Positions 11,740 through 28,261 of a DNA stretch of 30,938 nt are shown here, piece after piece (the first letter of the stretch is position 1; the number at the start of each line of letters is the position of its first letter). Origin of the DNA: Coxiellaceae bacterium (lineage in GTDB: Bacteria; Pseudomonadota; Gammaproteobacteria; Coxiellales; Coxiellaceae); assembly GCA_041746415.1 (NCBI GenBank), contig JBGTHB010000062.1, positions 1 to 30,938 on the forward strand. Reading direction: 5' to 3'. The notes beneath the pieces are model-generated. The model saw only the letters and a program-made list of their open reading frames with translations. It was not told where the DNA came from and searched no databases. Made by a program: the position numbers and the translations under genes.

Positions 11740-12258
11740 ATGCAAAAAATCTTGTTTACGATTGATGAAGTTAAGCATGACGAAAAATTCACGCATACCG
11801 TGAATAGTTTTATTTTATGCGCTGGGGAAAAATCAATGCAGCTATGGTCGGATAATAAAGCCATGACACTTAATAATGGTGACACCATTCGCTATCAGCA
11901 ATATTTTCTTACTGTGCACATTATTAATGAACGCAATCAAGCAGTGACGCAACAAAAACTAAATTGGCTAAGTCCACTGCAAACCGATTTAAATCACCAA
12001 ACTCGACAATTAAGCCATCCCTTTTCTCATACAGCGACAGATCCATTCGATCCCCTTGCCTTTTTAGCGCCAGCAACTCAAGCGCCGGATATTTTCTCGC
12101 CGGCAATTTCGCTTGCACATGAGCCTGTGTCTTATCGTGCACCGGAGGCCATACAAAAAGCCACCGAATACGCTAACAAACCTAAGCTGCTTGAGCGTAT
12201 CAAACAAACCAGTAAAAAAATTTGGCGAACCACCAAGCCCGGAGTAAATCAATGGTGA
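11740..12258 (+). CDS. Hypothetical Pro-rich protein immediately upstream of tssJ; possible degenerate FHA-like N-terminus
   Basis: The 172-aa ORF has a C-terminal half rich in Pro, Ala and Ser. The N-terminal ~60 aa end in LNNGDTIRYQQYFLTV, which weakly resembles the last strands of an FHA domain. The GR/SxxH FHA signatures are absent, so this is only a guess. It overlaps the tssJ start by 7 bp. Confidence 0.4.
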   Translation: MQKILFTIDEVKHDEKFTHTVNSFILCAGEKSMQLWSDNKAMTLNNGDTIRYQQYFLTVHIINERNQAVTQQKLNWLSPLQTDLNHQTRQLSHPFSHTATDPFDPLAFLAPATQAPDIFSPAISLAHEPVSYRAPEAIQKATEYANKPKLLERIKQTSKKIWRTTKPGVNQW

Positions 12259-12701
12259 AATTATGGCAGACACTGCTGCTGACATTATTGCTATGTGCAT
12301 GTTCGCACGGTGCAAGACAAGCGAATTTAGCCGTAACCACAGCGCACTATCTTAATCCTGATGTGTCTGGTCGGCCTGCACCGATAGTAGTATCAATTTA
12401 TCAACTTAAATTTGCCAATCGTTTTAGTCAAACAGATTACCAACAATTAAATGATAACGCCGCCAACCTTCTAGGCGATAATTTAATTGACCGACAAGAT
12501 ATTGAAATTAGACCAGGCGAACACCGCACGGTTCATATTGATCTTGCCCAAGACACAGAATTTATCGGTTTAGTCGCTCATTATCGTAATATTAATGCAG
12601 CAAAATGGCGTGCGGTTATAAGCGCCCCGCCCAAAACAAGCGCTCTTAATTTAAATATCGAGCTTGAAGCGCAAGCGCTAAGCGTTGAACGAGTACGATA
12701 A
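12252..12701 (+). CDS. tssJ: Type VI secretion outer-membrane lipoprotein TssJ
   Basis: The start was moved to MVKLWQTLLLTLLLCACS, which carries a lipobox (LCAC|S); a GGAG ribosome-binding site lies 7 nt upstream. The SciN/VasD-family motif PIVVSIYQLK is present. The gene lies upstream of tssK-tssL-tssM. Confidence 0.8.
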   Translation: MVKLWQTLLLTLLLCACSHGARQANLAVTTAHYLNPDVSGRPAPIVVSIYQLKFANRFSQTDYQQLNDNAANLLGDNLIDRQDIEIRPGEHRTVHIDLAQDTEFIGLVAHYRNINAAKWRAVISAPPKTSALNLNIELEAQALSVERVR

Positions 12702-12748
12702 TAACGATAAAAATAATGTGTAAATTTAAAAAAGTTGCGGAACTATAA

Positions 12749-14050
12749 ATGCAAAGTAATCGAGTCAACTGGGCTGAAGGGTTGTTTCTAAAACCTCAAC
12801 ACTTTCAACAACAAGAACGCTACTTTGAATATTCCATTACACAAAAATATCACCAACTCGGTGATCATTTGTGGGGAATCAAGACGCTGTCTTTTAATCA
12901 AGAACTATTGCAACAAGGTAAATTGGCTTTAGACTCAGCAAGCGGCTTTTTTGCCGATGGAACGGGCTTTAATTTTCCAAATTGCGATTGCAGCCCAGAT
13001 GCCATCACCATCCCAAATAATACTAAAAACCAAATAGTTTACCTTGCTTTGCCGGTAATCAAACATAATGAATACCATCAACGCTACTCCCACGCCCACC
13101 TCAACCTACTCGATCAATCCACCAACGATTTTGATTGTGATGATATAGAAATAGCAAAAATTAAACCCATACTAAAACTTTCAAGCCACGAGCTAGACAA
13201 TTATCTGGTTATTCCACTAGCTAAAATTACAGAATGTCGCACTGATAACAGCATTCAACTTGATTCAAATTTTATTCCAACAGCCATTCAAACTCAGGCC
13301 TTTGCAAAGTTAGCCCAAATGGCAGTTGAAATATTGGAGTTGCTCAATCATCGCTCGCATGCTTTATCGCAACGCCTAACCGACGTAGAACAGTCAGCTA
13401 CTGCTGAAATCACTGACTTCATGCTGCTGCAATTAGTGAATCGCTATGAAGCAGTATTTTTCGATTTAACGAATACTGCTGTTTTACACCCGCGGCAATT
13501 GTATCAAGCGTTAATACAATTGCTCAGTGAGCTAAGCACATTTACAAATGACAAACGTCGCGTCGCAAACATGTGTGTTTATAATCATCAAGATCTTGCC
13601 ACCACTTTTATGCCCTTAATGCACCAGCTACGTCATGAACTCAGTACTGTATTGGTTCAATCTGCCGTAGCAATAACACTTGAACCACGCGGTGCTGGCA
13701 TCTTTGTCGGCATTATAAATGAAAAAAGTTTACTAGATGATTGTCACTTTATATTAGCAATTAGCGCAGATATACCTAGCGAAACATTACGTAAAACATT
13801 GCCATCGCAAATAAAAATCGCCCCTGTTGAACAACTGCACAATTTAGTAATGCGTTCTTTACCTGGTATTGAAATTGAAAATTTAGCTATTGCACCCAGA
13901 CAAATTCCCTATCACAGCAATTTTTTATATTTTCAAATTAATAAACAACACTCACTATGGCAATCGTTGCCACAATCTGCCGCATTGGCTTTACATTTAA
14001 CGGGATTGTTACCTGGATTGAAACTGGAATTATGGGCAGTACGAGGATGA
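12749..14050 (+). CDS. tssK: Type VI secretion baseplate protein TssK
   Basis: The N-terminus MQSNRVNWAEGLFLKPQHFQQQERY matches the canonical TssK N-terminus. The length is 433 aa. Confidence 0.9.
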   Translation: MQSNRVNWAEGLFLKPQHFQQQERYFEYSITQKYHQLGDHLWGIKTLSFNQELLQQGKLALDSASGFFADGTGFNFPNCDCSPDAITIPNNTKNQIVYLALPVIKHNEYHQRYSHAHLNLLDQSTNDFDCDDIEIAKIKPILKLSSHELDNYLVIPLAKITECRTDNSIQLDSNFIPTAIQTQAFAKLAQMAVEILELLNHRSHALSQRLTDVEQSATAEITDFMLLQLVNRYEAVFFDLTNTAVLHPRQLYQALIQLLSELSTFTNDKRRVANMCVYNHQDLATTFMPLMHQLRHELSTVLVQSAVAITLEPRGAGIFVGIINEKSLLDDCHFILAISADIPSETLRKTLPSQIKIAPVEQLHNLVMRSLPGIEIENLAIAPRQIPYHSNFLYFQINKQHSLWQSLPQSAALALHLTGLLPGLKLELWAVRG

Positions 14051-14787
14051 AGCATCAACACCACAATCCCTATCTGGCATGCACCCAAACGGTTATCACC
14101 TTATTATTGCAAGTTAAGCATCAAGCTCAGCAACCCGATTATCAAAAATTGCACGCTCAATTTATTAATGAGATCCAGCAAGTAGAAATTTATTTGCGCC
14201 AACAAGGAGTGAGCGAACGTCAGGCATTGTCTACCCGCTACTGCTTATGTGCAGTTACTGATGAGGCCATATTATCGACTAATTGGGGCGTACAATGCGG
14301 CTGGTCACAACAAACCTTATTGAGCTTGTTCCATCAAGAAACCTGGGGCGGTGAGCGCTTTTATTTAATCTTAGAAAATGCACTGAAAAACATGCGCGAT
14401 AACCTTGATTTTATCGAATTACTGTATGTTTTATTAAGCCTGGGCTTTGAAGGTAAATTTTATAATAAAGAAGCCGTTGTCCGCGAACAAATTCGTAACC
14501 GCTTATTCTACGCCATACGCCATGCCCGCGGTAAAGTGACCAGACAACTTTCAACACACGCTTATGATCCCGAACCATTTATGTTGCATCACCAAAACCG
14601 TCGCTCACTCAAAAAATTTGCTTACGTTTGTTTATCTCTATTTTTACTCATCAATCTCAGTTATAACTTGAGGTTAAATCACGTTGCCGATCCACTAACC
14701 CAACAATTAGCGCAATTAGCCCAAATTTCACCAGTAACCGTTTTTAGCCAATTTACCGACATTAAACGTACAAGGCCAAACTCATGA
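14047..14787 (+). CDS. tssL: Type VI secretion membrane protein TssL (DotU family)
   Basis: DotU core motifs are present: STRYCLCAVTDEAIL, LLSLFHQETWGGERFY and IELLYVLLSLGFEGKFYN, with a single C-terminal TM. The start was moved to the ATG at 14047, which overlaps the tssK stop (ATGA). Confidence 0.9.
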   Translation: MKHQHHNPYLACTQTVITLLLQVKHQAQQPDYQKLHAQFINEIQQVEIYLRQQGVSERQALSTRYCLCAVTDEAILSTNWGVQCGWSQQTLLSLFHQETWGGERFYLILENALKNMRDNLDFIELLYVLLSLGFEGKFYNKEAVVREQIRNRLFYAIRHARGKVTRQLSTHAYDPEPFMLHHQNRRSLKKFAYVCLSLFLLINLSYNLRLNHVADPLTQQLAQLAQISPVTVFSQFTDIKRTRPNS

Positions 14788-17700
14788 GACGTTACTGGGA
14801 TATCATTAAGCAGTTTTGCACTCATGTCGTCAGCATGATTAAACAATCCACTAAAAAAATATGGACAATTAGCCAACGCTACTACACCAAACAGAAATTA
14901 TTTGTTAGCGAAAAACGTCAATTTACTTCACTTCACAAACAACCCTGGTATTTTGTTTTAGGTGAATCACAGTCTGGACGTAGCCAATTAATCGCCCACA
15001 GCGGTTTTCACAGTGAAGCAAATCATTTGTTGAGTAAAGCTTGTGAATTTTACAAAGCGCTTTTTCCTCGTTTAAGTTGGGATTTTAATGCCAATACCTG
15101 CTTTATCACTAACAAAGACGAAACTTTTTTTGAAGATGAAGCCAACATCAAACCTTGGTTAAAAACCCTGGCGAGGCACCGCCGCCAACAACCATTAAAC
15201 GGCGTTATTATGACGATTGATATCAATGAGTGGTTGTATCAAGATAAATCTCAACAGCAGCGATTAATTCAACGTTACGCTAAATTGTTGATTCGTTTAA
15301 GTCAGCAATTAAAAGAACAAATACCGGTTTATTTGGTCTGGACTAAAATGGACAGACTAATTGGTTTTAATGAATTTTTCCATGAACTGTCTCGCGAAGA
15401 GCTGGAGCAAATTTGGGGTCTCACTTTTCCAATTACAAAAATTACTGATCTCACGTTGCTACGACAGTTTCTACATCAAGAATACCCTAAGTTAGTGCAA
15501 CGATTACAAGAACGTGTTATTCATCTATTAGACAGTGAAAAATCAGCCGCGGCTCGCGAATTAATTTATGCTTTCCCGCAACAAATTCAATTATTAGCGC
15601 AACCCATTGCTGATTTTATCCACCAGCTGATTAGCGCGCTGCCGCAGTTTAATTTGATTCATTTACGGGGATTTTATTTTACTAGCGCCTCCCAAACGGG
15701 CCAACAGCATAATTTGCTATTGCACAGCATTGCCAATGAATTTTCACTGGTGCCGATTGCACCGACTGTTTCAACGCTCAATCAAGAATGTTATTTTATT
15801 CGCAATTTATTCGAACAACTCATTTATCCTGAAAGCAGAATAATGGGATTCAGCCATCAAACTCGTAAACGCAAGCAGTACACTTATCAAAGCGCGTGGC
15901 TAGTTATTCCGCTATTATTAATATACGGTATTTGGCAAACAGCAATCAGCTACCACTATGAAATCCATTACTTAACTGCTCTTAAATCAAAGATTGCCTA
16001 CTATAAGCACTTACGCAATAATTTGGATTTTCACAATCCCGATATCACCACTACGTTACCGCTGCTACAGCAAGCACATCGTATATTGAACCCAATTCAT
16101 CATTATGCGCATTTTGGCATGAATTTATTGTTTAATTCACATCAATTACGCACTCAAGCAAACAATTTAATGCAAAGAACATTGGCCAGTTTTTTTGTGC
16201 CTCGTATCGCCTTAACACTAGAAAATCAATTACACCATAATAAGATGAACATTAATTTTCGCTATGCGACATTAAAAGGCTATTTGGTTTTTAACCCACA
16301 AAACCAAGCACCTACCAATAATCTAATTGCACCAATGAAAATTTATTGGGCGCAACACTTTAAAGGCAAACCGAATACGTTGTTAGCGCTTAATTATTAC
16401 CTCAATCAAGCGGTACTGTTTCCTCAAACCGCCTTACCGATTGATCACGATCTGGTTAGTCAAAATCGCGATCTGTTACAGCAAGTGATTCCGTCTCAAC
16501 GAGCCTATGTATTATTGCAATTTGAAAGCCGCGCTAGTGCACTCAACGATATTAATTTTGCGCAATTGACTGGCAGCGCTATTGACAGTGTTTTTGTCAA
16601 CAGCACCACATTACCAAAAATTCCTGCGTTTTATACCCTAGCTGGTTTCCAACATATCTTTTCATATCAACTGAACAATATTGCTAATGAAGTAGCCAAC
16701 GATAATCACGAAATTGGCTTAAGCAGCGTAACCTATGGTTCACCTTCTGCAACAGATATTAAAGATCAAGTTAAAACACAATATAGCCAAGATTACCTAA
16801 ATCAATGGGACAACGCGCTTAAGGCGCTTGACGTCAAGTCTTTTGACACTTATGACAATGCGGAAAAAATCTTAACGCTGTTAGGCAGCAATCAATCGCC
16901 TTTATTTCATGTGTTGAACATTGTTAAGCGTAATACCACAACCATTGACGATGACAGCATCCAAGTGAAGCAACATTTTTACGCCTTGAATCATTTTTAC
17001 GACCATTCTCAAGCTGAAAAATTGAGCGCTAGTTTCACTGCCATCAAAACCTATTTGCAAACTATCCAAAATCAAAATGATCCTAATAAAGCTGCCTTTG
17101 ATGCTGCTAAACAGTATTTTATGGGCGCCAAAAATCCAATTTATCAATTACAGCAATTAGCCAAAGATGCACCTGCTCCAGCTAAACGTTGGCTAGAAAC
17201 CATTGCCGATAACACGCTGGCATTAATTTTCGCGCACGCGCGCGATTATATTAATGCGCAATGGCAAAAGGACATCATTCTTCCATACGGCAACGAGGTG
17301 ATGGGGCACTATCCTATTAACATTCACGCTGTAGCGCAGCTCGATCTTAATACCTTCCAAACACTTTTTGCACCAAAAGGTAAATTGGATCAATTTTTTG
17401 TGCAGTTCATCCAACCCTTTGTCAATTCAGACGGGCCAAATTGGCAATATTACCAACGTGAAAATGGTTCTATTGAATTATCTACTGCTACGCTGGTTTT
17501 ATTTGAGCGCGCTAAACGCATTCAAAACGATTTCTTTAATAACACATCAGGCACGCCAAGTCTGGAATTAACAATTGAGCCACGCTTGCTTGATACTAAT
17601 TTAATGCGCTTTAATTTAGCTATTGGTAATCAAAATTTAGCGTACGCTCACGGTCCGCGCCAAAGCCTTGCCCTACATTGGCCACTGGGTATATTGAATC

Positions 17701-17945
17701 AAAGCGTAACGCTTTCCATGATAGATTTTAATCATAACCCCGATGAATTCCACAGCAGCGGTCCCTGGTCATTGTTTAAATTATTTGATCGAGGACAGTG
17801 GCAACCGGGCAACAACCCAAATAATTACAACTTAATACTTTATTTTAACCACCGTGTTGTAGAGCTAACCATCAACAGCACATTGCCTTTAGCTACATTG
17901 AAATTAACTGATCTCGAACATTTTAACTTGGTGAGTACTTTATGA
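14784..17945 (+). CDS. tssM: Type VI secretion membrane protein TssM (IcmF-like); atypical, with no N-terminal TM hairpin and a degenerate Walker A
   Basis: The 1053-aa protein lies 3' of tssL with an ATGA overlap. A P-loop-like segment PWYFVLGESQSGRSQL (nt 14961-14984) is followed by a central TM (WLVIPLLLIYGIWQTAI) and a long periplasmic C-terminal region, which together give IcmF-like architecture. Confidence 0.75.
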   Translation: MRRYWDIIKQFCTHVVSMIKQSTKKIWTISQRYYTKQKLFVSEKRQFTSLHKQPWYFVLGESQSGRSQLIAHSGFHSEANHLLSKACEFYKALFPRLSWDFNANTCFITNKDETFFEDEANIKPWLKTLARHRRQQPLNGVIMTIDINEWLYQDKSQQQRLIQRYAKLLIRLSQQLKEQIPVYLVWTKMDRLIGFNEFFHELSREELEQIWGLTFPITKITDLTLLRQFLHQEYPKLVQRLQERVIHLLDSEKSAAARELIYAFPQQIQLLAQPIADFIHQLISALPQFNLIHLRGFYFTSASQTGQQHNLLLHSIANEFSLVPIAPTVSTLNQECYFIRNLFEQLIYPESRIMGFSHQTRKRKQYTYQSAWLVIPLLLIYGIWQTAISYHYEIHYLTALKSKIAYYKHLRNNLDFHNPDITTTLPLLQQAHRILNPIHHYAHFGMNLLFNSHQLRTQANNLMQRTLASFFVPRIALTLENQLHHNKMNINFRYATLKGYLVFNPQNQAPTNNLIAPMKIYWAQHFKGKPNTLLALNYYLNQAVLFPQTALPIDHDLVSQNRDLLQQVIPSQRAYVLLQFESRASALNDINFAQLTGSAIDSVFVNSTTLPKIPAFYTLAGFQHIFSYQLNNIANEVANDNHEIGLSSVTYGSPSATDIKDQVKTQYSQDYLNQWDNALKALDVKSFDTYDNAEKILTLLGSNQSPLFHVLNIVKRNTTTIDDDSIQVKQHFYALNHFYDHSQAEKLSASFTAIKTYLQTIQNQNDPNKAAFDAAKQYFMGAKNPIYQLQQLAKDAPAPAKRWLETIADNTLALIFAHARDYINAQWQKDIILPYGNEVMGHYPINIHAVAQLDLNTFQTLFAPKGKLDQFFVQFIQPFVNSDGPNWQYYQRENGSIELSTATLVLFERAKRIQNDFFNNTSGTPSLELTIEPRLLDTNLMRFNLAIGNQNLAYAHGPRQSLALHWPLGILNQSVTLSMIDFNHNPDEFHSSGPWSLFKLFDRGQWQPGNNPNNYNLILYFNHRVVELTINSTLPLATLKLTDLEHFNLVSTL

Positions 17946-18928
17946 ATGCAAATGCCGACACATTAAAAACGGCCAATCAAGATATACGCCAATCCCCTAA
18001 TTTGGCCACACTTTATTTTGATACCAAGAGCCAGCGCAATGATGCTAAACGCATGGAGCGTGAAGCGGTGTTAAATGAAACATCACTGCAACTTGCTTTA
18101 CCACTTTGGCAGGCACTTGAATCTCAATGCGACACGATCTTAGCTGAACACAGCAAAGATATTGAAGTGTGCTGCTGGCTAATCGAAGCCCGTGTGCGTA
18201 CCGACGGTATAACTGGTCTTATTACCGCGTGGCAGTATACAACTGATTTACTGCGTACCGTTGGCTTAGCCTGTCAACCTAATAACCCACTGGACTATTT
18301 AGCCAAATTGCATGAAGGTGGCAACACCAATTCGTTAAGCGGTTATTTACGATTCCTACCCATCACCGACAATACTGCTATTAGCGCCAACTTTCAGGCT
18401 TGGCAATATGAGGCCAAGAACAATGATGCTCAGCTTGCCCATGCGCTTACTGCTGCTATCCAGTCTTCGCCTTTGTCGTTCTATCAACAACAGTTACAAT
18501 TTATCGCAACAGCAAAAACCACATTTACCACGTTGTGTGAAGTTGCCCACGCTCTGGATAACAAACAAGCGCCTAGTAAAACGCATTTTTTAGATGCCTT
18601 AAATCAACTTGAACTTATATTCAGCGATATCGTGCAACAGCATTTCCCGCAAACACGAGCTGAAATAAAAACACAAACAAGTCCCCGCCTTGCTTCAAGC
18701 ACAAATTCACCATCCACTACTAGCGCTTTAACACGTGAAACAGCACTGCAACAAATAGAAACGTTGTCGCATTTTTTTGAGCAAACTGAACCGCACTCAC
18801 CTTTAATTTTTTTGCTTAAGCGTTGCGTTGAATGGGGTAAGTTACCCTTACCTAAACTACTTGAACAAATGATTACGGACGACACCACACGTGACAAATT
18901 GTGTAATTTAATCGGCATAAAATTATAA
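17942..18928 (+). CDS. tssA: Type VI secretion protein TssA (ImpA N-terminal domain family)
   Basis: The ImpA_N-like segment SKDIEVCCWLIEARVRTDGITGLITAWQYTTDLL follows the SKDL-V--WL-EA-pattern of that family. The gene overlaps the tssM stop (ATGA) and lies immediately upstream of tssB and tssC. Confidence 0.65.
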   Translation: MNANADTLKTANQDIRQSPNLATLYFDTKSQRNDAKRMEREAVLNETSLQLALPLWQALESQCDTILAEHSKDIEVCCWLIEARVRTDGITGLITAWQYTTDLLRTVGLACQPNNPLDYLAKLHEGGNTNSLSGYLRFLPITDNTAISANFQAWQYEAKNNDAQLAHALTAAIQSSPLSFYQQQLQFIATAKTTFTTLCEVAHALDNKQAPSKTHFLDALNQLELIFSDIVQQHFPQTRAEIKTQTSPRLASSTNSPSTTSALTRETALQQIETLSHFFEQTEPHSPLIFLLKRCVEWGKLPLPKLLEQMITDDTTRDKLCNLIGIKL

Positions 18929-18984
18929 CTACTCAAAAAATAATGAACATAATCTACAAAACGACAATGAACTAGGAGGCCACT

Positions 18985-19506
18985 ATGATCGAAAGCATAC
19001 ATAATAAACTTGAACGCGTACGCAAACCCCGCGTCCACATTAAATATGAAGTGGAAACAAATGATGGGGTAGCGCAGCATGAACTGCCTTTTGTGGTCGG
19101 CGTTATGGGCGATTTCTCAATGGATAACACACAAAACCGTAAACCTTTGCGTGAACGTAAATTTATTGAAATTGATCGCGATAATTTTGATAACGTCATG
19201 CAACGCATGAACCCACAGCTGTCCATCCGCGTAAAAAATGTTTTCACCACAGCAGAACAAGAACTACCGGTAACCTTGTCGTTTGCCTCCCTTGATGATT
19301 TTTCGCCAGAAAACCTCACTGACGCCATACCAATGCTTAAAAAATTAAAAGCGCTGCGACATATGCTGCGTGATTTACTCAGCCAAAGCGATCGTTCACC
19401 ACAACTTGAAGCACTACTTGAACAAGCCCTAAAAGAACCTGAAGTGTTGGCAAAACTCAGTGCTGAACTCAGCAACCAACCTAATTACACTGCGGAGTCT
19501 GTATAA
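18985..19506 (+). CDS. tssB: Type VI secretion sheath small subunit TssB (VipA)
   Basis: The translation KLERVRKPRVHIKYEVETNDGVAQHELPFVVGVMGDFS is the canonical TssB sequence. An AGGAGG ribosome-binding site lies at 18965-18970. Confidence 0.92.
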   Translation: MIESIHNKLERVRKPRVHIKYEVETNDGVAQHELPFVVGVMGDFSMDNTQNRKPLRERKFIEIDRDNFDNVMQRMNPQLSIRVKNVFTTAEQELPVTLSFASLDDFSPENLTDAIPMLKKLKALRHMLRDLLSQSDRSPQLEALLEQALKEPEVLAKLSAELSNQPNYTAESV

Positions 19507-20963
19507 TGAGCACAGTTATTGATAAATCAACCTTATTAAAATCCGAAACAAATATTTTTAATTTAGCGTTACAAGCCAATGATCATAGAGACACCCACAA
19601 AACGACACAGCTTTTAACAGCGTTAGCAAAAAATATAACAGATGGTATGCTCAGTTGGGATAAAAGTGTGATTAATTCCATTAATCGCGCCATTGCGAAA
19701 TTAGATAATCTAATTTCGCAGCAGCTGGCTGAGGTTATGCACCATCCGCGTTTTAGTGCATTGGAAGGTTCATGGCGCGGCATGAATTATTTAGTTAATC
19801 ATTCTGAAACCTCGTCTTTACTTAAAATAAAACTCATGGATGTTAAAAAATCAGAACTACAATTGGATTTTGAACGTGCTTTAGAATTTGACCAAAGCAG
19901 CTTGTTTAAAAAAATATATGAGTCTGAGTTTGGTATGCCAGGCGGCGAACCTTATGGTGTTTTAATTGGTGATTATACTTTTACTCAACATCCACAAGAC
20001 ATTAACCTACTTCAAGGACTAGCCGGTGTTGCTGCCGCCAGTTTTTGTCCCTTCCTATCCAGTGCTGATGCGCAATTATTTGGTTTCAGTGACTGGAGCA
20101 AGTTATCCCAACCACGCGATTTAAAGAAAATTTTTGAAAGCACAGATTACATTAAATGGCGTCAATTTCGTGAAACTGAAGACTCTTGTTTTATTACCTT
20201 AACCCTGCCACGTGTGTTAGCACGTCTTCCTTATGGTGAAGCAACAAAACCAGTTGCTGAGTTTAATTATGAAGAACAACAGCCACATAGTCATGGTTAT
20301 TGTTGGATGAACGCCGCCTATCCGCTTGCTACTAAAATCACGGATGCTTTTGCTAAAACGGGTTGGACAACAGCCATTCGTGGTGCAGAAGGAGGAGGTA
20401 AAGTTGAAGATTTGCCATTGCATATTTTTACTAGCGACGATGGCGATTTAGACGCGCAATGCCCAACGGAAGTTGGCATTACCGATCGGCGCGAAGCCGA
20501 ACTTTCTCAACTGGGTTTTTTACCTTTGTGTCATTATAAAAACACAGACTACGCTGTCTATTTTGGTGCAGAAACGCTGCACAAAGCAAAACAGTATGAT
20601 CGTGTGGATGCTACCGAAAACGCACGTATCGCAGCTCGCCTACCTTATGTATTAGCTACCTCTCGATTTGCACATTATTTAAAAATTATGGCGCGGGATA
20701 AAATCGGTTCATATCAAGAAGCCAGTGACTGTGAAATTTGGCTAAACCATTGGATTTTAAATTTTGTAAACAATAACGCTTCGACTAAGCAAGATTTAAA
20801 AGCGAAGTACCCATTGGCAGATGCCAAAATTGAAGTGAAACCTATTCCAGGAAAGTCCGGGGCATATCACGCTATTGCCTGGCTGCGCCCATGGCTACAA
20901 ATGGAAGAGCTAACGGCTTCATTACGCCTGGTAACAAGCATTCCCAAACGAGGTGGTCAATAG
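19506..20963 (+). CDS. tssC: Type VI secretion sheath large subunit TssC (VipB)
   Basis: The 485-aa protein carries PGGEPYGVLIGDY, LPRVLARLPYG and FAHYLKIMARDKIGSY. It overlaps the tssB stop by 1 nt. Confidence 0.92.
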   Translation: MSTVIDKSTLLKSETNIFNLALQANDHRDTHKTTQLLTALAKNITDGMLSWDKSVINSINRAIAKLDNLISQQLAEVMHHPRFSALEGSWRGMNYLVNHSETSSLLKIKLMDVKKSELQLDFERALEFDQSSLFKKIYESEFGMPGGEPYGVLIGDYTFTQHPQDINLLQGLAGVAAASFCPFLSSADAQLFGFSDWSKLSQPRDLKKIFESTDYIKWRQFRETEDSCFITLTLPRVLARLPYGEATKPVAEFNYEEQQPHSHGYCWMNAAYPLATKITDAFAKTGWTTAIRGAEGGGKVEDLPLHIFTSDDGDLDAQCPTEVGITDRREAELSQLGFLPLCHYKNTDYAVYFGAETLHKAKQYDRVDATENARIAARLPYVLATSRFAHYLKIMARDKIGSYQEASDCEIWLNHWILNFVNNNASTKQDLKAKYPLADAKIEVKPIPGKSGAYHAIAWLRPWLQMEELTASLRLVTSIPKRGGQ

Positions 20964-20968
20964 TCATC

Positions 20969-22054
20969 ATGCCAAGCAGCCATGCGGTCCAAAACCATAA
21001 GCAACGCTGGATTATACTAAAGCTTATTAACCTATGTGATGAAAAAATTCATCAAACGCTTGCGGATATTGAAAATAATGCCAACTGGCAGCAGCTTGCT
21101 GCCAGTTGGCAAGGTTTGCAATGGCTGGTTGACACAACGCAACTGTCTACCAAACAAACCAAAATTAAATTACTCAATATCAAACCCCATGAAGCACTGA
21201 CTGATTTAGCGCTGAGCGATGATTTGACTAACAGTCATTTATACGAATTAATTTATCATCGCGAATTGGATTTTCCAGGTGGCGAACCCTTTGGGATTAT
21301 CATAGCGGATTTTTACAATGAAATTCGCTTGCTGCAATTGCTTGCTTATTTGGCGCAAGAAGCATTAACCATATTGTTAACTTCAACAACCCATCCCGAT
21401 AGCAATGATCATCTCACTTGGTCAGCGTTTGTCTGCGTGAGCTACCCTGCTGTGCGCATCAACACCCAGCTTTTTGTTAGCAGCAGTTATGCAGTCGCTA
21501 TTATTATTGCTTTAACTTTCCAACAAACAGGCTGGTTTTCACAAATCACCGATCATGCAATTAAAGCGCCTTTTATTGAGCCTGCGCATTATGAATTTAT
21601 TGATTCATTTACACCTGATACGAAGGTGTATTTGAGTGACAAACAAACTGATCAGCTAGCAACAAAAGGAGTGATTGGCATCAAATCATTGCATCTCAGT
21701 CATCAATTGGCTTTTTTCCATGCTGTTAGCGCAACACAGCAACAACCGTTAACACATCTTTTATGCGGCTGTCGTTTTGCACATTACTTAAAAGCGATTT
21801 TGCGCAACAAAACCGGTAATTTCACCACCACCGACCAATGCCAGCAATTATTACAAAAATGGTTATTAGGTTATTGCGCACAAAGTTCAGATTTGTCATC
21901 CGATTTAGCAGCACGCTACCCTTTAAAATCCGCTCATGTCACAGTAAAAGCGAACCAAACCAATCGCAGCGAATTTATTTGCCAGTTGTCATTAGTGCCT
22001 CATTGGCAACTTAACCAATTGGAAACCAAACTGCGTATTTTAATTAAGGTATAA
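20969..22054 (+). CDS. Truncated, divergent TssC paralog (TssC-like sheath-domain protein) sitting where hcp usually lies
   Basis: Several segments align with the upstream TssC. SWQGLQWLV matches SWRGMNYLV. FPGGEPFGIIIADFY matches MPGGEPYGVLIGDYTF. CRFAHYLKAILRNKTGNF matches SRFAHYLKIMARDKIGSY. The C-terminus ARYPLKSAHVTVKA matches AKYPLADAKIEVKP. About 100 residues are missing relative to TssC. The start was set at the ATG at 20969, 5 nt after the tssC stop. Confidence 0.7.
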   Translation: MPSSHAVQNHKQRWIILKLINLCDEKIHQTLADIENNANWQQLAASWQGLQWLVDTTQLSTKQTKIKLLNIKPHEALTDLALSDDLTNSHLYELIYHRELDFPGGEPFGIIIADFYNEIRLLQLLAYLAQEALTILLTSTTHPDSNDHLTWSAFVCVSYPAVRINTQLFVSSSYAVAIIIALTFQQTGWFSQITDHAIKAPFIEPAHYEFIDSFTPDTKVYLSDKQTDQLATKGVIGIKSLHLSHQLAFFHAVSATQQQPLTHLLCGCRFAHYLKAILRNKTGNFTTTDQCQQLLQKWLLGYCAQSSDLSSDLAARYPLKSAHVTVKANQTNRSEFICQLSLVPHWQLNQLETKLRILIKV

Positions 22055-22055
22055 T

Positions 22056-22481
22056 ATGACTAATTCAACGCATCAACAATTAATTAACGACATTAAAATA
22101 GCACTTGAAGAGTTACTCAACACACGCAAACACTATTATTTTAATATTAAACGCTGGCCGCTTGTGACCAAATCCATTTTAGGCTATGGCTGTTGTGACT
22201 TTTCTAAAATGATCAATGGTTCGCAACTTACTTTTGCCACTGTGGAATTTGAAATAAAACAAGCAATCGAGCAGTTTGAGCCACGGGTTCAACACGTGTC
22301 GGTGCATATTGAATACAGCGAGCAACAACAGCTTTTCCTTACTATCACGGTTGAATTAAAAAACACGCAAAACATAGCGCTTTATTTACAATCCAATGCT
22401 CTTAACACCGCGCACTCAATAAAATTAAAAGGTCAGGAAAATGCTGCAAACGATTTTGGACTATTATCAAACCGAGCTTGA
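22056..22481 (+). CDS. tssE: Type VI secretion baseplate protein TssE (gp25-like)
   Basis: The 141-aa protein has LEELLNTRK and IKQAIEQFEPRVQHVSV, which correspond to the TssE LLNTR-G and FEPRL motifs. Confidence 0.75.
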   Translation: MTNSTHQQLINDIKIALEELLNTRKHYYFNIKRWPLVTKSILGYGCCDFSKMINGSQLTFATVEFEIKQAIEQFEPRVQHVSVHIEYSEQQQLFLTITVELKNTQNIALYLQSNALNTAHSIKLKGQENAANDFGLLSNRA

Positions 22482-24069
22482 AGCATTGTATGAACAAGCA
22501 CTTTATTTTGCTAAAGCGCATCCACAATACGCCAGCCAACTTGGTATATTGCCTTTTGCCATAAAAAACCCTGAGTTGGAACGCTTATTACAAGGAACCG
22601 CTTTTTTAACAGCGCGCATACAAAAAAAAATAGATGGCGATTTTAAACAAATAAGTCATGTCTTGTTGACAGCAATAATGCCAGCATTGTTACAGCACTC
22701 ACCAGCAGCGGGTATTGCGTGCTATCAACCTAATAGTGACCCCAGCGACAACTTCATCCTAGAGAAATCAACACCTTTTCATGCCACCACTACCACCGGT
22801 GACACAGTAATTTTCACAAACCCACAGCCAGTTCATATCAGCAAAGCTAAAATAAAAAGCACCCTCTATAAAAGAACCACCCACGGGGCGGAGCTGGTTA
22901 TTAAGCTCAGCTGTGTAGATAACAACACTCTGAATTTTTACCTTAATACCAACAATCAATCTGCTCACGCTGTCATAACCGCACTTTTGCAAAGTCGCAT
23001 TAGCACTACTCATCAGCCTCAGGAGCCGCACTTACAGCTTTATGCGTTAGCAGCACAAAATTGCTGGCTTGCTCAACCCGCTAATCTTTTATTTATTTAC
23101 CAAATTATACGTGAATTTTTTCACTACCCTCTTAAAAGACAATTCTTCAGCTTAACTAATCTTTGCGTATACAATGAAGCGGTAGACATTACGTTTTATT
23201 TTAAAAAATTTGATACGCAGTTTGAACGCCTAATCCATACCAATTTATTGCAACTCAATTGCTTCCCGCTTATCAACCAATATTCAACTACATGCGAACC
23301 GATTAAGCTCAATCATGACGTAGCGCAACAAACTATTCAACTTGACAATATCATTGCGATTGAAAATGTGACTGCCTATAAAAATGATGGTGAAATGATT
23401 AATGTTGCGCCGTTGTTGGAAAATCCTTCAAGTGCAACTGAGTTGTGCTATTACGCGCACTACAACACCGAGCTAAATAAAACTCAGCTAAGTTTTAACT
23501 CTAGCCAAGACTATGCGCAAATTGATTTACTGGAAGTGCAAGCCTTAAAAAGCAATCAAGAAGCGATTGAAACCATTTTAAATGATTCAGCAAATCTTGC
23601 TGCTCATGATGAAACTCAACTCGATAGCGCCGTCTTGTGTTGGCAAAGCCAACTCTACCCCGGTAGTTTCAACCAAATTAACCAGCAACATTATTGGCAA
23701 TTAATCGCGTTGTTAAATCAACCACTACAATACGCACCAGCCCATGCGGATGCTGTTTTAAGTCAACTAAAATTATTATTACGCGCACTGCATCCAGCCT
23801 CAGCATCAAAATTCTCCGGCTTAATTGATGACTTATCTCAACTGAGCATTAAATTGATTACGGGTCGATCACGTACAGCTGGCTTTTCGGCCGTGACTTA
23901 CGGTTACGAATTTAATTTACTAGTGGACACTGACGACGGCAATAAGTCGGAATTATCCTTGTTAGGCTTATTACTCTTTCATTATTTACAAGCCACTGTT
24001 GAAATGAACCGCTTTGTTATTTTAATTTTGCGCAACAAACAACATCAGGTATTGCACCAATGGCAATAG
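22441..24069 (+). CDS. tssF: Type VI secretion baseplate protein TssF
   Basis: The N-terminus MLQTILDYYQTELEALYEQALYFAKAHPQYASQLG...ELERLLQGTAFLTARIQKKIDGDF is the canonical TssF N-terminus. The protein is 542 aa and overlaps tssE by 41 nt. Confidence 0.85.
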   Translation: MLQTILDYYQTELEALYEQALYFAKAHPQYASQLGILPFAIKNPELERLLQGTAFLTARIQKKIDGDFKQISHVLLTAIMPALLQHSPAAGIACYQPNSDPSDNFILEKSTPFHATTTTGDTVIFTNPQPVHISKAKIKSTLYKRTTHGAELVIKLSCVDNNTLNFYLNTNNQSAHAVITALLQSRISTTHQPQEPHLQLYALAAQNCWLAQPANLLFIYQIIREFFHYPLKRQFFSLTNLCVYNEAVDITFYFKKFDTQFERLIHTNLLQLNCFPLINQYSTTCEPIKLNHDVAQQTIQLDNIIAIENVTAYKNDGEMINVAPLLENPSSATELCYYAHYNTELNKTQLSFNSSQDYAQIDLLEVQALKSNQEAIETILNDSANLAAHDETQLDSAVLCWQSQLYPGSFNQINQQHYWQLIALLNQPLQYAPAHADAVLSQLKLLLRALHPASASKFSGLIDDLSQLSIKLITGRSRTAGFSAVTYGYEFNLLVDTDDGNKSELSLLGLLLFHYLQATVEMNRFVILILRNKQHQVLHQWQ

Positions 24070-24869
24070 CGGATTTTTTTCATATAGTACATTCCTTGCA
24101 GCTAACCGCCACTAAACCGTTGCAGTTTGCTGCAGCACACTCAACTACCGTGAATTTAAATGACATTGATAAAATCACGGCCACTGCGGACGCGGTGTGC
24201 ATCCACATTAACTTTATGCAACTCTATGGTGTCTCTGGCATCATGCCTAATAACGACTTTGAAAAATTTCATGAATCAGCTCAGCAACGTGCGCCCGCCT
24301 TTGCTCAATTTACTCAACTGTTTCAGAATCACTTAACGCATTTACTCGTTAACGCTTGGCAATGCAATCAACCCACGCTGCAAATTAATCGTCTTAAGCG
24401 CACTCTAACTGAATGTTTTGATCTCAAAGATAACAACCTGGTGCCATACGTAAATTATATTCTGCGGCGACCGATTAGTACGTCCGCACTGCAACAATTG
24501 CTTAGCTCTCATTTAAGTTTGCCAGTGCGCATTAGTGAAAATAGTGGTAAATGGCTTGAAATAAATCAGGCAGAATACACACTGCTTGGTAAATCTTTTA
24601 ATAAGCTCGGTGCCACCAGTATGCTGGGAAAACGATTCTTTTCTCCCAGTGCCGCCGTGGGTATCGCTATTGGCCCATTAGATTACGCTAATTACTGTCA
24701 GCTCATTAAAGGCAAACAGCAACGTGCAGCTATTGAAAAAATGCTAGCGGCAGTGATGGATGCATGCGTTACAGCTCAGATAGCATTGCAATTACCTACA
24801 GCAGCACGTCCACCCTTACTATTAAGCAAAAACAGCCAGTTACAGCTTGGTTTTCATCTGTGGTTTTGA
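24060..24869 (+). CDS. tssG: Type VI secretion baseplate protein TssG (short form)
   Basis: VCIHINFMQLYGVSGIMPNNDFEKF...FAQFTQLFQNHLTHLLVNAWQ matches the TssG core. The protein is 269 aa and overlaps tssF by 10 nt. Confidence 0.7.
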   Translation: MAIADFFHIVHSLQLTATKPLQFAAAHSTTVNLNDIDKITATADAVCIHINFMQLYGVSGIMPNNDFEKFHESAQQRAPAFAQFTQLFQNHLTHLLVNAWQCNQPTLQINRLKRTLTECFDLKDNNLVPYVNYILRRPISTSALQQLLSSHLSLPVRISENSGKWLEINQAEYTLLGKSFNKLGATSMLGKRFFSPSAAVGIAIGPLDYANYCQLIKGKQQRAAIEKMLAAVMDACVTAQIALQLPTAARPPLLLSKNSQLQLGFHLWF

Positions 24870-25810
24870 ACACTAGCAGCTTCAGCGTTAACTTCATCAA
24901 ATTGTTTGCAACTCAAATTAGCTACAAACACGCTCAAAAGTGTGCTCAATAAAATATTCTTATTTTGTAAAATTACTGTCGCCAAAATTAAATTGACTAT
25001 TATGCGTATCGTAAACTGTACTGAATAACGCATTAAACGAGTTTGACCTAATAAAAAACTATCCAATTTTTTAGCTGGCAATAAATATTGTACTGCAAAA
25101 CTAATAGCAGCAAAAAATAGCAGAGTACCTTTAAACTGTTCTAGAAGTGCAAATAGATCTGTTTCCCAGTTTTCACCGCTAAACAGACATGACTCGGGGA
25201 ATGATTGGCAGTGATTAAAACTATTTGCAGCCTGTTCCAACTGGCTGTTGTTATAATCACGTTCTCGCAAATGACAAAGCAGATTGGGCAGGGTTACCTT
25301 ATTTATAAGATAATGGCTGTGGTTATAAACAGCCTTGCCATTATGTAATACAGGATATTTAGGGAAAGCTCCCATATTAGACGAATGAATCATATCGTGC
25401 ACAAACGAAAAATTGCTGTTGCACCAATTAATAATTTCTTCTTGGCTCTTGCCTAAAAAGGCATAATCAGTCTCATGATCTCTTTTAAGTTTAATAAATT
25501 GATCGCATACATCCTTAACCATATTTCTTCTAAAAAATAGTGAAAACCTCTCCTGGCTAAGCTTACCTTTAACACAGGATTGCAAATAGGGAGCGCCAAA
25601 ACCATGTAAGCTCAATATGGCATTTTTAAATTTCGCATCAACGAAAATATGTGCACCAGGTAAAAGATCGAACATAAAACAATTTCTATTTATCTCACAT
25701 TCAGCAAGACGACGCATACCGACAATAAAAGGCTTTAGTACACGCCTTAAATAAGCTCCGTCGGTCCAACTACCGAGGATAGCTTGTATTTCTTCTGACG
25801 ACATTCGCAT
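24854..25810 (-). CDS. Hypothetical protein of unknown function with a hydrophobic C-terminal region (2-3 predicted TM helices); convergent with tssG and overlapping it by 16 bp
   Basis: The 318-aa ORF shows no family signature I can recognise. The last ~90 aa are hydrophobic (LLFFAAISFAVQYLLP...IIVNLILATVILQ...LLSTLLSVFVANL). Confidence 0.5.
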   Translation of the reverse strand: MRMSSEEIQAILGSWTDGAYLRRVLKPFIVGMRRLAECEINRNCFMFDLLPGAHIFVDAKFKNAILSLHGFGAPYLQSCVKGKLSQERFSLFFRRNMVKDVCDQFIKLKRDHETDYAFLGKSQEEIINWCNSNFSFVHDMIHSSNMGAFPKYPVLHNGKAVYNHSHYLINKVTLPNLLCHLRERDYNNSQLEQAANSFNHCQSFPESCLFSGENWETDLFALLEQFKGTLLFFAAISFAVQYLLPAKKLDSFLLGQTRLMRYSVQFTIRIIVNLILATVILQNKNILLSTLLSVFVANLSCKQFDEVNAEAASVQNHR

Positions 25811-26061: not shown

Positions 26062-26766
26062 TTATACGCCCTTCACTTTCTGCTTAAACGGTTGCAGCGC
26101 TGCTCGAATGTTGGCGTACAATTGCGGCAACCAGGTCACTTTTTCCCGTGATGGCAGTGGTTTTTGGTAGCGCAAATCATTGGGGGCAATAATCACCTCA
26201 ATATTTTTTATGCCGACTAAATCAGCTAACACGAACAATTGCTGTATATTGGTATCACCAATCGCTATGCAGCCAATCGACAATTTATTGCCGTGAATAA
26301 AAATATCACCGCCTAAATTGGTGCGATGATCCAAAAGAGCATGATAACGATCAAACGCATTCGGATAACTAACGTGCATCGAAAGATCAAAACGGCTCTC
26401 TGGATTTAAACCGATAATGTGATATATCCCTTCTGGCACTTGATCATCCATGCTGTGTAATTTAGGTCCTGGACCACCACTGGCCGCATACACCCGGAAA
26501 TTTTTGATATGGTGCCAACGTGATTGAGTGCTATCGCGTGCCCACAACTCCATTCTTTTTTCGTGCTTAAATACTAATAAAGTAATTTGTTTGGGGGGGT
26601 AATTGACCTGCGCCTTTGCAAAATCTGGCTTTAAACGTGCCTCTGCGTACTTAGAATACTCGTTTACTTTATAATGCAGCACCTGATCATATGTCATTTG
26701 CTTAGCACAAGCGGCCAAGAGTAATGCAACCACAGTGAGAATAAGCAAACGCAGTGTTTTCATCAT
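26062..26766 (-). CDS. L,D-transpeptidase family lipoprotein (YkuD/ErfK-YbiS-YcfS-YnhG domain)
   Basis: The signal peptide has a lipobox (LLAACAKQ). The catalytic motif IFIHGNKLSIGCIAIGD matches the L,D-transpeptidase HG-x(n)-SxGC pattern. Confidence 0.75.
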   Translation of the reverse strand: MMKTLRLLILTVVALLLAACAKQMTYDQVLHYKVNEYSKYAEARLKPDFAKAQVNYPPKQITLLVFKHEKRMELWARDSTQSRWHHIKNFRVYAASGGPGPKLHSMDDQVPEGIYHIIGLNPESRFDLSMHVSYPNAFDRYHALLDHRTNLGGDIFIHGNKLSIGCIAIGDTNIQQLFVLADLVGIKNIEVIIAPNDLRYQKPLPSREKVTWLPQLYANIRAALQPFKQKVKGV

Positions 26767-26920
26767 GTCTGATTCAATCCTTTGTTCAGGGTGCTAACTT
26801 TATTATATCTTTGGCATTATATCCTTGGGAAGTGACGCTTGCCAATTATTTGTTCGCAACTCGCATTTTTAATCACGAATAGTGTATTATCTCCCCCAAT
26901 TAAATCAAAAAGGATTGGCT

Positions 26921-28261
26921 ATGAAATTGTTGCGCTTCACCTTAATCCCATTGCTCCTCATTGTTTTGACTCCACCCTCTGCGATATTAATTTGGTATAC
27001 CAACACCACACTCGGCGGTTCGCTTTACGCCTTGTGGCAACAATTTTTGAGTAACGGGTTTATTTCAACGTTATACCATATTTGGTCACCGGTATTTTTT
27101 GGCTCAGCAAAAGCATGGGGCATTATTTTTATTTTCGCAGCAACACAACTGCTACTAATGCGGTTGGTGCCGGGCAAAAAAGAATATGGCCCAGTTACCC
27201 CTCAAGGCAACACACCGGTTTATAAAGCCAATGGTTTTACTTGTTTTGTGATCACAATTTCATTATTTGTCGTCACCAGTTTTGGCTTACACTGGTACTC
27301 ACCCGCCATTGTCTACAACAATTTTGGCGCAATTTTGGGTGCATTAAATTGTTTTAGTTTGTTGTTTTGTGTTGGTTTATATTTGAAGGGGCGCTTCAAA
27401 CCTTCAACTAGTGATGCTGGCATAACGGGCAATATTCTCTTTGATTACTACTGGGGCACAGAACTTTATCCTCGTGTTCTAGGCTGGGACATCAAACAGT
27501 TTACCAACTCACGCTTTGGCATGATGAGCTGGCCAATTATTATTTTGTCGTTCGCTGCCAAACAAGATCAGTTGTACGGTTTGAGCAATTCTATGTGGGT
27601 CGCGGTGGCCATCATGTTGGTTTATATCGGTAAATTCTTTTTATGGGAAATGGGCTACATGCGCTCACTGGATATCATGCACGACCGCGCTGGTTATTAT
27701 ATTTGCTGGGGTTGTTTAGTCTGGGTGCCTGCGGTTTACACTTCGCCGATTCTATATTTGGTCAATCATCCAATAGAGCTTAACGAACTCAGCGCGTTTT
27801 TAATTTTAATCGCTGGTATTAGCAGCGTACTTATTAATTTCTGGGCGGATAAACAGCGACTGCGAGTGCGCGCCACCAATGGCAACTGCACAGTTTGGCG
27901 CAAACCACCCGTGCTTATTAAGGCCAACTACACCACGGCAACAGGCGAGCAAAAACACAGTTTATTATTAGCTTCAGGTTGGTGGGGCGTGGCGCGGCAT
28001 TTTCATTATGTGCCAGAAATCCTCGGTGCTTTTTTTTGGACGTTACCCGCACTGTTTCATCATTTGTTACCCTGGTTTTATGTTATCTTTTTAACCGTAT
28101 TATTGTTGCATCGCTCACTCCGTGATGAACAACGCTGCCGCTTAAAATACGGCATTTATTGGCAGCAGTATTGTGAGAAAGTGCCGAATCGCTTGCTCCC
28201 AGTGATAATAACCCGTACCTTAAACCAACTGCTCTTTTTCTGGAAATCTTCAGTAAATTAA
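26921..28261 (+). CDS. Sterol reductase, ERG4/ERG24/DHCR7 family (eukaryotic-type delta-7 or delta-14 sterol reductase homolog)
   Basis: This is a polytopic membrane protein. Its C-terminal signature LLASGWWGVARHFHYVPEI...HLLPWFYVIFLTVLLLHRSLRDEQRCRLKYGIYWQQYCEKVPNRLLP aligns residue by residue with the DHCR7 and ERG24 signature (GxWGxxRHxxY...LLxHRxxRDxxRCxxKYGxxWxxYCxxVPYRIxP). The start was moved to MKLLRF, which has an AAGGA ribosome-binding site. Confidence 0.9.
   Translation: MKLLRFTLIPLLLIVLTPPSAILIWYTNTTLGGSLYALWQQFLSNGFISTLYHIWSPVFFGSAKAWGIIFIFAATQLLLMRLVPGKKEYGPVTPQGNTPVYKANGFTCFVITISLFVVTSFGLHWYSPAIVYNNFGAILGALNCFSLLFCVGLYLKGRFKPSTSDAGITGNILFDYYWGTELYPRVLGWDIKQFTNSRFGMMSWPIIILSFAAKQDQLYGLSNSMWVAVAIMLVYIGKFFLWEMGYMRSLDIMHDRAGYYICWGCLVWVPAVYTSPILYLVNHPIELNELSAFLILIAGISSVLINFWADKQRLRVRATNGNCTVWRKPPVLIKANYTTATGEQKHSLLLASGWWGVARHFHYVPEILGAFFWTLPALFHHLLPWFYVIFLTVLLLHRSLRDEQRCRLKYGIYWQQYCEKVPNRLLPVIITRTLNQLLFFWKSSVN

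Follow-up and report, generated by a model that had tools for sequence, protein, structure and literature searches.

Type VI secretion system (T6SS) models describe the sheath as a TssB-TssC homopolymer, and the i5-type clade of these systems, which comprises those of Rhizobium and Agrobacterium, the i5 systems of Vibrio and many lineages known from metagenomes, has a second TssC. In the imp locus of Rhizobium leguminosarum, impC and impD both fall under COG3517 (Boyer et al. 2009, PMC2660368), and the pair in Agrobacterium was named TssC41 (Atu4341) and TssC40 (Atu4340) by Lin et al. 2013 (PMC3702570). Each of the two Agrobacterium proteins is needed for Hcp secretion, in a non-redundant manner; TssB and TssC41 bind one another and are mutually stabilising, and deletion of tssC40 does not keep either of them from accumulating (PMC3702570). 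The TssC40 protein has been detected (PMC8656257), less consistently than TssC41 in proteomics, and a literature search for its mechanism found no paper that explains it. The Vibrio europaeus system, which also carries two tssC genes in tandem, belongs to T6SS subtype i5 (PMC12824646). The subject of this work is tssC' (or tssC2), a gene that lies between tssC and tssE in a contig of 30,938 nucleotides (nt) from a Coxiellaceae bacterium (GenBank assembly GCA_041746415.1, contig JBGTHB010000062.1, positions 1 to 30,938 of the forward strand), the whole of which is called the window. Its product, TssC', is shown below to belong to the 'second TssC' family (ImpD, TssC40, Vibrio i5), of which it is an extra-reduced form. 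The names 'tssC1/tssC2' denote, in most papers, separate T6SS clusters and not tandem copies.

Membership of TssC' in the second-TssC family

TssC' is 361 amino acids (aa) long, the 362 aa given in an earlier note, made from the sequence of this DNA alone, having counted the stop codon of an open reading frame (ORF) whose coordinates were correct. Its BLASTP alignment with the product of the upstream tssC extends over 426 columns, with 26% identity and 20% gaps (E 1e-32, well outside what chance would give), and takes in all four of the sequence blocks that the note had matched between the two proteins; the description of tssC' as a truncated, strongly diverged tssC paralog, intact and placed 5 nt after the tssC stop, is borne out. 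Both Pfam domains of the large sheath subunit are recognised, VipB (PF05943) at 1.1e-31 and 110.4 bits, in a match split into two stretches, and VipB_2 (PF18945) at 8.4e-27 and 94 bits, the cutoff being 27 for each. A sequence search of the PDB with TssC' returned T6SS sheath large subunits only, and the AlphaFold2 model of the protein (predicted local distance difference test, pLDDT, 74.4; predicted template-modelling score, pTM, 0.72) retrieved in Foldseek the TssC1, VipB and IglB sheaths (E 2e-18 to 1e-13, TM 0.60-0.63), followed by the sheath proteins of phages and of extracellular contractile injection systems (eCIS). TssC' is, by both Pfam domains and by the fold of its model, a member of the TssC/VipB superfamily. 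It does not have the status of a canonical TssC, since it scores 169.9 bits on TIGR03355, the NCBIfam equivalog of canonical TssC, below the cutoff of 271.5 (the neighbouring TssC reaches 649.5), and its N-terminal helices are missing.

The same searches bear on the idea that TssC' is a tube-like substitute for Hcp. This idea draws on the position of the gene between tssC and tssE and on the lack of hcp on the contig, and on nothing else; TssC' gives no Hcp match in T6SS_HCP (PF05638) or NCBIfam, the Foldseek search contains nothing Hcp-like and consists of sheath proteins, and both VipB domains are present. We consider such a substitution extremely improbable, and the assignment to another family for which the earlier note had advised looking, with an Hcp or tube-like fold as the example, appears neither in Pfam, nor in NCBIfam, nor in the fold. 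The accompanying claim that tssC' occupies the slot normally held by hcp applies to other T6SS subtypes; within the clade of the window tssC, a second tssC is the regular occupant. Eight loci of the i5 clade were inspected (the window, L001, L003, L005, L006, L007, L009 and L012), and a short second VipB protein follows immediately after tssC in all eight. Downstream of it lies tssE, at times preceded by tagJ, in every one of these loci save L012, where the second copy also stands directly after tssC and vgrG takes the place of tssE. Of three loci that fall outside the clade, two have hcp after tssC (L013, L014) and one has tssK (L004, Erwinia).

The tandem tssC-tssC2 arrangement, which had been taken as unusual, is in fact already known, annotated and studied genetically, and is not a new T6SS architecture: it is the impC/impD or TssC41/TssC40 arrangement, and is routine in the NCBI annotation of Rhizobium and of Vibrio plasmids. 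When plasmids were searched by tblastn, a second copy of metagenomic origin serving as the query, the pair was found in V. europaeus, in V. tubiashii, in V. crassostreae and in V. gigantis, as well as in many rhizobial replicons. The order is tssA-hcp-tssB-tssC-tssC2-tssE-F-G-H in V. europaeus (L005, second copy of 451 aa) and tssA-tssB-tssC-tssC2-tagJ-tssE in R. leguminosarum (L006, 462 aa), and in both loci NCBI annotates a pair of neighbouring genes as 'contractile sheath large subunit'; the JGI label 'ImpD' is found on a protein related to TssC'. A profile scan of genome contigs from species representatives with a TssC' alignment returned only the canonical TssC of Erwinia psidii, followed by tssK, a first metagenome scan gave no match, and a second, with canonical TssC as the query, gave a 1.9-kb fragment and an unrelated, very divergent TssC-like ORF.

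Evidence that TssC' belongs with the second copies comes from profile hidden Markov models (HMMs), from a tree and from individual residues. TssC' scores 243.4 bits against an HMM of seven verified second copies that excludes the window lineage (C2), and 144.5 bits against an HMM of seven canonical TssCs (C1); the respective values for its ortholog in L001 are 252 and 188 bits. When each second copy was left out in turn, the C2 HMM was preferred for six of the seven, L007 giving a tie (392.6 vs 394.4). In a curated and bootstrapped neighbour-joining (NJ) tree, which replaced an earlier tree of 150 taxa that was star-like and carried unreliable 'start' labels, the second copies of the window and L001 pair at 99% and join those of L003 and Vibrio (with P0143 and P0151) at 71%, and the canonical TssCs of i5 loci form a separate clade with 95-100% support. 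The window TssC is in a clade (95%) with the canonical copies of Rhizobium, Vibrio, L003 and P0007, all of which are accompanied by a second copy; the canonical TssCs outside this clade (P0009, P0012, Erwinia) are not. The alignment separates the two kinds of protein by the N-terminus, full in canonical TssCs and lost in second copies, and by GWF in second copies for the canonical GW[TC], WL for WI, P[HQ][FYW]Q[LF] for PWLQME, Cys for Ala in the hairpin and Cys for Ser before RFAHYLK, the last in 4/5 second copies (Rhizobium keeps Ser).

The extent of the family was gauged by a profile search of 1.84 billion representative proteins, with 2,999 hits. Two window-type proteins head the list at 753 and 708 bits, the next hit being at 227 bits, and 99 of the 148 hits that follow the leading pair measure at most 465 aa, mostly 401-465 aa; the 103 profile hits of up to 470 aa have a median of 3 residues aligned with TssC 1-52. 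With 361-368 aa, TssC' and its close relative are shorter than the family norm of about 430-465 aa.

An independent, lineage-specific duplication of tssC, whose product would have come to resemble ImpD and TssC40 by convergent loss of the N-terminus, would nevertheless fit two of the results: the BLASTP bits of TssC' are similar for its own TssC (126) and for other second copies (134-135), and in the NJ tree TssC' and the Rhizobiales ImpD clade do not come together, the latter being placed apart from the Vibrio and window second copies and nearer to canonical TssCs. Such a duplication is difficult to reconcile with the excess of about 99 bits of the C2 over the C1 HMM, with the 71% bootstrap that joins TssC' to verified second copies and keeps it outside the canonical i5 clade, with the identical slot in 8/8 i5-type loci and with the several second-copy-specific residues held in common, and we judge it improbable. 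Since the NJ tree splits ImpD from the window and Vibrio copies, the case for a single origin draws chiefly on synteny, on co-occurrence and on the residues in common; a single ancient duplication for all second copies is the most parsimonious account and is not proven.

A number of other TssC-like genes were encountered in these searches. The AT-rich metagenome contig L011 carries at 73-954 a truncated and very divergent TssC-like ORF, 27% identical to TssC residues 149-348, with no other T6SS genes nearby. In L002, positions 10001-11314 encode a 437-aa protein with VipB and VipB_2 (P0003), annotated 'ImpD' and preceded by a PAAR protein and by several ORFs without assignment; there is no tssB or canonical tssC within 10 kb upstream or 1.6 kb downstream of it, and it is an orphan sheath-like gene whose surroundings are unusual. 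In the metagenomic T6SS locus L007 (1-9287), the calls for tssM, tssB and the canonical tssC are broken into several pieces, through frameshifts or assembly errors, and the second tssC, which encodes 428 aa, is intact, as are tssE-F-G-clpV. Finally, P0100, P0103, P0118, P0123, P0124, P0134, P0157, P0161 and P0163 are proteins of 587-772 aa in which VipA (TssB) is fused to a full VipB and VipB_2 (TssC). They may be either genuine sheath subunits made as a single chain or the products of gene calls that were merged, and may be linked to the roseobacter 'TssCL'; their use as a Rosetta-stone sign of pairing between second copies and TssB was dropped, their VipB scores looking canonical.

Retained parts, lost parts and maintenance of the gene

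The anatomy of TssC' was mapped by comparing the secondary structure of the TssC' and TssC models by way of sequence alignments and residue counts per segment. In the BLASTP alignment, residue 16 of TssC' corresponds to residue 59 of TssC, leaving the first ~58 TssC residues without a counterpart; 9 residues of TssC' are aligned to TssC 1-52, so that about 52 N-terminal residues are counted as lost, and nothing in TssC' is equivalent to helices 10-26 and 30-45 of the TssC model. These helices are the ClpV-recognition helix and helix H1, the latter packing on the neighbouring protomer (PMC4239648, PMC5807055). The region that follows is kept, and the first helix of TssC' (residues 4-36, pLDDT about 93) is the counterpart of TssC1 helix S66-M86, which bundles with the C-terminal helix of TssB (PMC5807055). 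The earlier note had held that the missing ~60 residues were those in contact with TssB; their absence was correctly seen, but the TssB-bundling helix is kept and the loss mainly concerns the ClpV-recognition helix and H1.

Beyond the N-terminus, TssC' has the middle-layer sheet strands KIKLL, GIIIADF, ILLTS and FVCVS, the PGGEP loop, in which G104, G105 and P107 are invariant across the aligned TssC and TssC2 proteins, and, in the gp25-like C-terminal domain, a long helix that bears the RFAHYLK motif, just before which stands the Cys characteristic of second copies. The C-terminal hairpin and terminal strand, which in TssC are the 'handshake' elements of the sheath (PMC5807055), are also present, and here the PWLQME of canonical TssC is replaced by the second-copy signature PHWQL. 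Alignments and models together show that the sheath core is kept in TssC': the TssB-bundling helix, the sheet of the middle layer, the loop with PGGEP and, at the C-terminus, the gp25-like domain with its handshake strands. The missing internal segment reported earlier is real, and there is more than one: the helical insertion at TssC 188-229 is reduced from 42 to 14 residues, the loop at TssC 241-265 from 25 to 2, and helix 367-376 of TssC is lost. TssC' is 124 aa shorter than the adjacent TssC. Loss of the N-terminus is a hallmark of the family; the internal losses characterise the lineage of the window and L001, and recur in a few other short forms, P0112, P0128, P0070 and P0113.

A search of 5.8 billion clustered proteins yielded one close relative of TssC', P0002, a protein of 368 aa and 42-44% identity that is encoded on the metagenome contig L001. 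Its gene is intact, free of the frameshifts or stops that the earlier note had associated with a pseudogene, and is found in the same order as in the window, tssM-tssA-tssB-tssC-tssC'-tssE. Identity between the window and L001 is 73% for TssC, 63% for TssB, 47% for TssM, 42% for TssC', 39% for TssA and 36% for TssE. The dN/dS comparison suggested in that note gives no usable ratio, synonymous sites being saturated (pS 0.73-0.81), and the nonsynonymous divergence (dN) was instead read relative to neighbouring core genes: it is 0.54 for TssC', 0.48 for TssM and 0.61/0.67 for TssA/TssE. TssC' thus diverges at about the rate of TssA and TssE, canonical TssC being slow, and conservation between TssC' and P0002 is densest in the core motifs.

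Since the divergence of tssC' is like that of TssM, TssA and TssE, the gene is read as being under purifying selection and not in decay, and two intact ORFs at 42% identity with conserved core motifs rule out a decaying copy. A degenerating duplicate, that is, a functionless pseudogene in the making, would account for a protein shorter than any canonical TssC, with internal deletions and a score below the TIGR03355 cutoff. It would have to be squared with the intact syntenic ortholog, with a dN comparable to that of core T6SS genes, with tight operon coupling and with an Agrobacterium homolog that is essential, and is in our view very unlikely. As judged from sequence, tssC' is a maintained, functional gene and not a pseudogene, and among the three options that had been offered for it (a second sheath component, a regulatory cap or a degenerating duplicate), the first fits best and the last is contradicted by the ortholog.

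A possible place for TssC' in the sheath

The best explanation of these observations, which we regard as reasonably probable, is that TssC' is a functional member of the second-TssC family that acts as a specialised sheath subunit. TssC' would probably pair with TssB and enter the sheath lattice through the handshake, as a subunit that escapes recognition by ClpV and of which there are few copies. Its location would most likely be a terminal ring, probably the baseplate-proximal one adjoining TssE, where it would be required for starting or anchoring TssB-TssC polymerisation. A role of this kind would explain why Hcp secretion depends on TssC40, although this protein has no stabilising effect on TssB, and why TssC41 cannot take its place. 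The tssC' gene abuts tssE, and the multi-paralog sheaths of Afp and PVC provide the analogy for such a ring. In eCIS, some sheath paralogs are restricted to the layers nearest the baseplate. The more specific proposal that the second TssC is a dedicated, ClpV-invisible sheath subunit forming a ring at one end, with the first ring on TssE as the most plausible site, is put forward tentatively, as a possibility short of an even chance.

TssC' could also work outside the sheath, as an assembly factor or regulator that binds TssB, TssC or TssA/TssE transiently and then leaves the structure, in the manner of a chaperone, a nucleation factor, a length controller or a distal stopper. The behaviour of TssC40, which is essential and yet dispensable for the accumulation of TssB and TssC41, is compatible with such a factor, as are its less consistent detection in proteomics and the much faster evolution of second copies relative to canonical TssC (42% vs 73% between the window and L001). 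However, the handshake elements and the TssB-bundling helix survive all reductions, as incorporation into a lattice requires, and a pure regulator would have no need of a complete sheath core. An assembly factor of this kind is the main rival explanation and seems to us unlikely.

Several points weigh against a specialised sheath subunit of the second-TssC family. The position of the Rhizobiales ImpD clade and the similar BLASTP bits to TssC and to second copies have been described above, and long-branch effects in the NJ tree cannot be excluded. Confidence in the TssC' model is moderate (pLDDT 74), with weak stretches at residues 204-220 and 241-246. The role in a terminal ring is a matter of analogy and inference. 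In addition, hcp, vgrG, clpV, PAAR and tagJ are all missing from the 30.9-kb contig, so that either these components are encoded in another part of the genome or the T6SS is not complete.

If the second TssC is indeed a dedicated sheath subunit of a terminal ring, the sheaths of i5-type T6SS would hold more than one large subunit, like those of eCIS, and the 361-aa form would represent a minimal module for a terminal-ring role, made up of a TssB-binding helix, a middle-layer sheet and a handshake domain. The form encoded in the window is a naturally minimised second TssC of an uncultured gammaproteobacterium, and the parts that survive in it narrow down the requirements for the paralog to function. 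As a discovery this is modest, because the arrangement was already annotated and studied genetically.

The locus and its comparison with described systems

The T6SS cluster of the window, at 11740-24869, has its genes in the order tssJ-K-L-M-A-B-C-C2-E-F-G, all on the forward strand, between housekeeping genes (Table 1). The tssC' gene begins with an ATG at 20969, separated by a 5-nt spacer from the TAG stop of tssC (20961-20963), and a single nucleotide separates its stop from the ATG of tssE. The public gene call (P0001, 361 aa) places the start at the same ATG, and the ortholog begins at the matching point. A further in-frame ATG at 20891 would give a product of 387 aa overlapping tssC, and was rejected, neither the public call nor the start of the ortholog supporting it.

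Table 1. Genes of the window and parts of tssC' (residue numbers are those of TssC' unless TssC is named)
Feature	Position	Strand	Remarks	Basis
mfd	7950-11381		housekeeping flank	
172-aa ORF	11740-12258	+	directly upstream of tssJ, overlaps its start	
tssJ	12222-12701	+		Pfam
tssK	12749-14050	+		Pfam
tssL	13957-14787	+		Pfam
tssM	14784-17945	+		Pfam
tssA	17942-18928	+		Pfam
tssB	18985-19506	+	sheath small subunit	Pfam T6SS_VipA 7e-53
tssC	19506-20963	+	canonical sheath large subunit, 485 aa	Pfam VipB 5e-131, VipB_2 5e-42; TIGR03355
tssC' (tssC2)	20969-22054	+	ImpD/TssC40-type second sheath large-subunit paralog	ORF, BLASTP, Pfam, model, HMMs
two long helices of tssC'	20978-21139	+	residues 4-57; TssC helices 53-78 and 81-99	models, alignments, PMC5807055
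PGGEP loop of tssC'	21275-21289	+	residues 103-107	alignments
two deletion junctions of tssC'	21386-21475	+	residues about 140-169	per-segment residue counts, model comparison
RFAHYLK motif of tssC'	21773-21793	+	residues 269-275	alignments
C-terminal beta-hairpin and last strand of tssC'	21923-22042	+	residues 319-358; strands E319-328, E335-344, E351-358	model, alignment
tssE	22056-22481	+	gp25-like baseplate subunit, sheath initiator	Pfam GPW_gp25 5e-15
tssF	22441-24069	+		Pfam
tssG	24060-24869	+		Pfam
317-aa ORF	24854-25810	-	convergent with tssG, 16-nt overlap with its end	
YkuD-like gene	26062-26766		housekeeping flank	
ERG4/ERG24 sterol-reductase family gene	26882-28261	+		Pfam 9e-67

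Three other genes of the window are of note. The 172-aa ORF upstream of tssJ and the 317-aa ORF next to tssG, the latter with a hydrophobic C-terminal region, have no match in Pfam, at relaxed thresholds as well, or in NCBIfam for the former, and no family match for the latter; the first may be a lineage-specific T6SS accessory protein, and for the second a role as effector or as membrane protein is conceivable. The sterol-reductase family protein is eukaryote-like and unusual in bacteria. Genes of the ERG4/ERG24 type are present in intracellular Legionellales and Coxiella, and the one in the window hints at a host-associated lifestyle. The Tgt protein of this organism shows 77-80% identity to metagenomic proteins and 71% to its counterpart in 'marine bacterium B5-7', a gammaproteobacterium without further classification.

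Among the named systems, TssC' resembles ImpD and TssC40 in being a second protein with VipB and VipB_2 encoded directly after canonical tssC, in an operon of the form tssA-tssB-tssC-tssC2-...-tssE-tssF-tssG, in the absence of the N-terminal ~50 residues of TssC and in the second-copy residues common to both. It differs in being about 100 aa shorter (361 vs 462-464 aa), having lost the insertion, the loop and the helix that correspond to TssC 188-229, 241-265 and 367-376; its identity to the Rhizobiales ImpD proteins is about 24-28%, the NJ tree groups it with the Vibrio-type copies instead and, unlike the Rhizobium locus, the window has no tagJ between tssC' and tssE. The Vibrio i5 systems (V. 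europaeus pVE1 T6SS2, WP_195877770.1, and the V. tubiashii and V. crassostreae plasmids) share the order tssB-tssC-tssC2-tssE without tagJ, and their second copies, with that of the metagenomic L003, form the verified group nearest to TssC' in the NJ tree. Here the difference lies in the second TssC, which keeps its internal segments in Vibrio (451 aa), and in the hcp upstream of tssB and clpV after tssG of the V. europaeus locus, neither of which is on the window contig. To canonical TssC, VipB and IglB (PDB 5n8n, 3j9g, 5urw, 9n4v, 3j9o), TssC' is alike in fold, in PGGEP and RFAHYLK and in the handshake strands, and it departs from them in having neither the ClpV-binding nor the H1 helix at its N-terminus and in scoring below the TIGR03355 cutoff.

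Extra TssC-like genes in T6SS clusters are also known from roseobacters, as TssCL, and from the double tssC of Tateyamaria, with 34-37% identity within the cluster (PMC9515649); TssCL differs from TssC' by its fused VipA domains. The eCIS (Afp2/Afp3/Afp4; Pvc2/3/4) are the precedent for a contractile sheath made of several adjacently encoded paralogs, Afp2, Afp3 and Afp4 all polymerising into the sheath (PMC12961389). Their sheath proteins are distant homologs of TssC' (Foldseek E about 1e-3) and belong to extracellular particles that are not recycled, and the analogy between the two, in which neighbouring paralogs would share in building a single sheath, is a functional one only.

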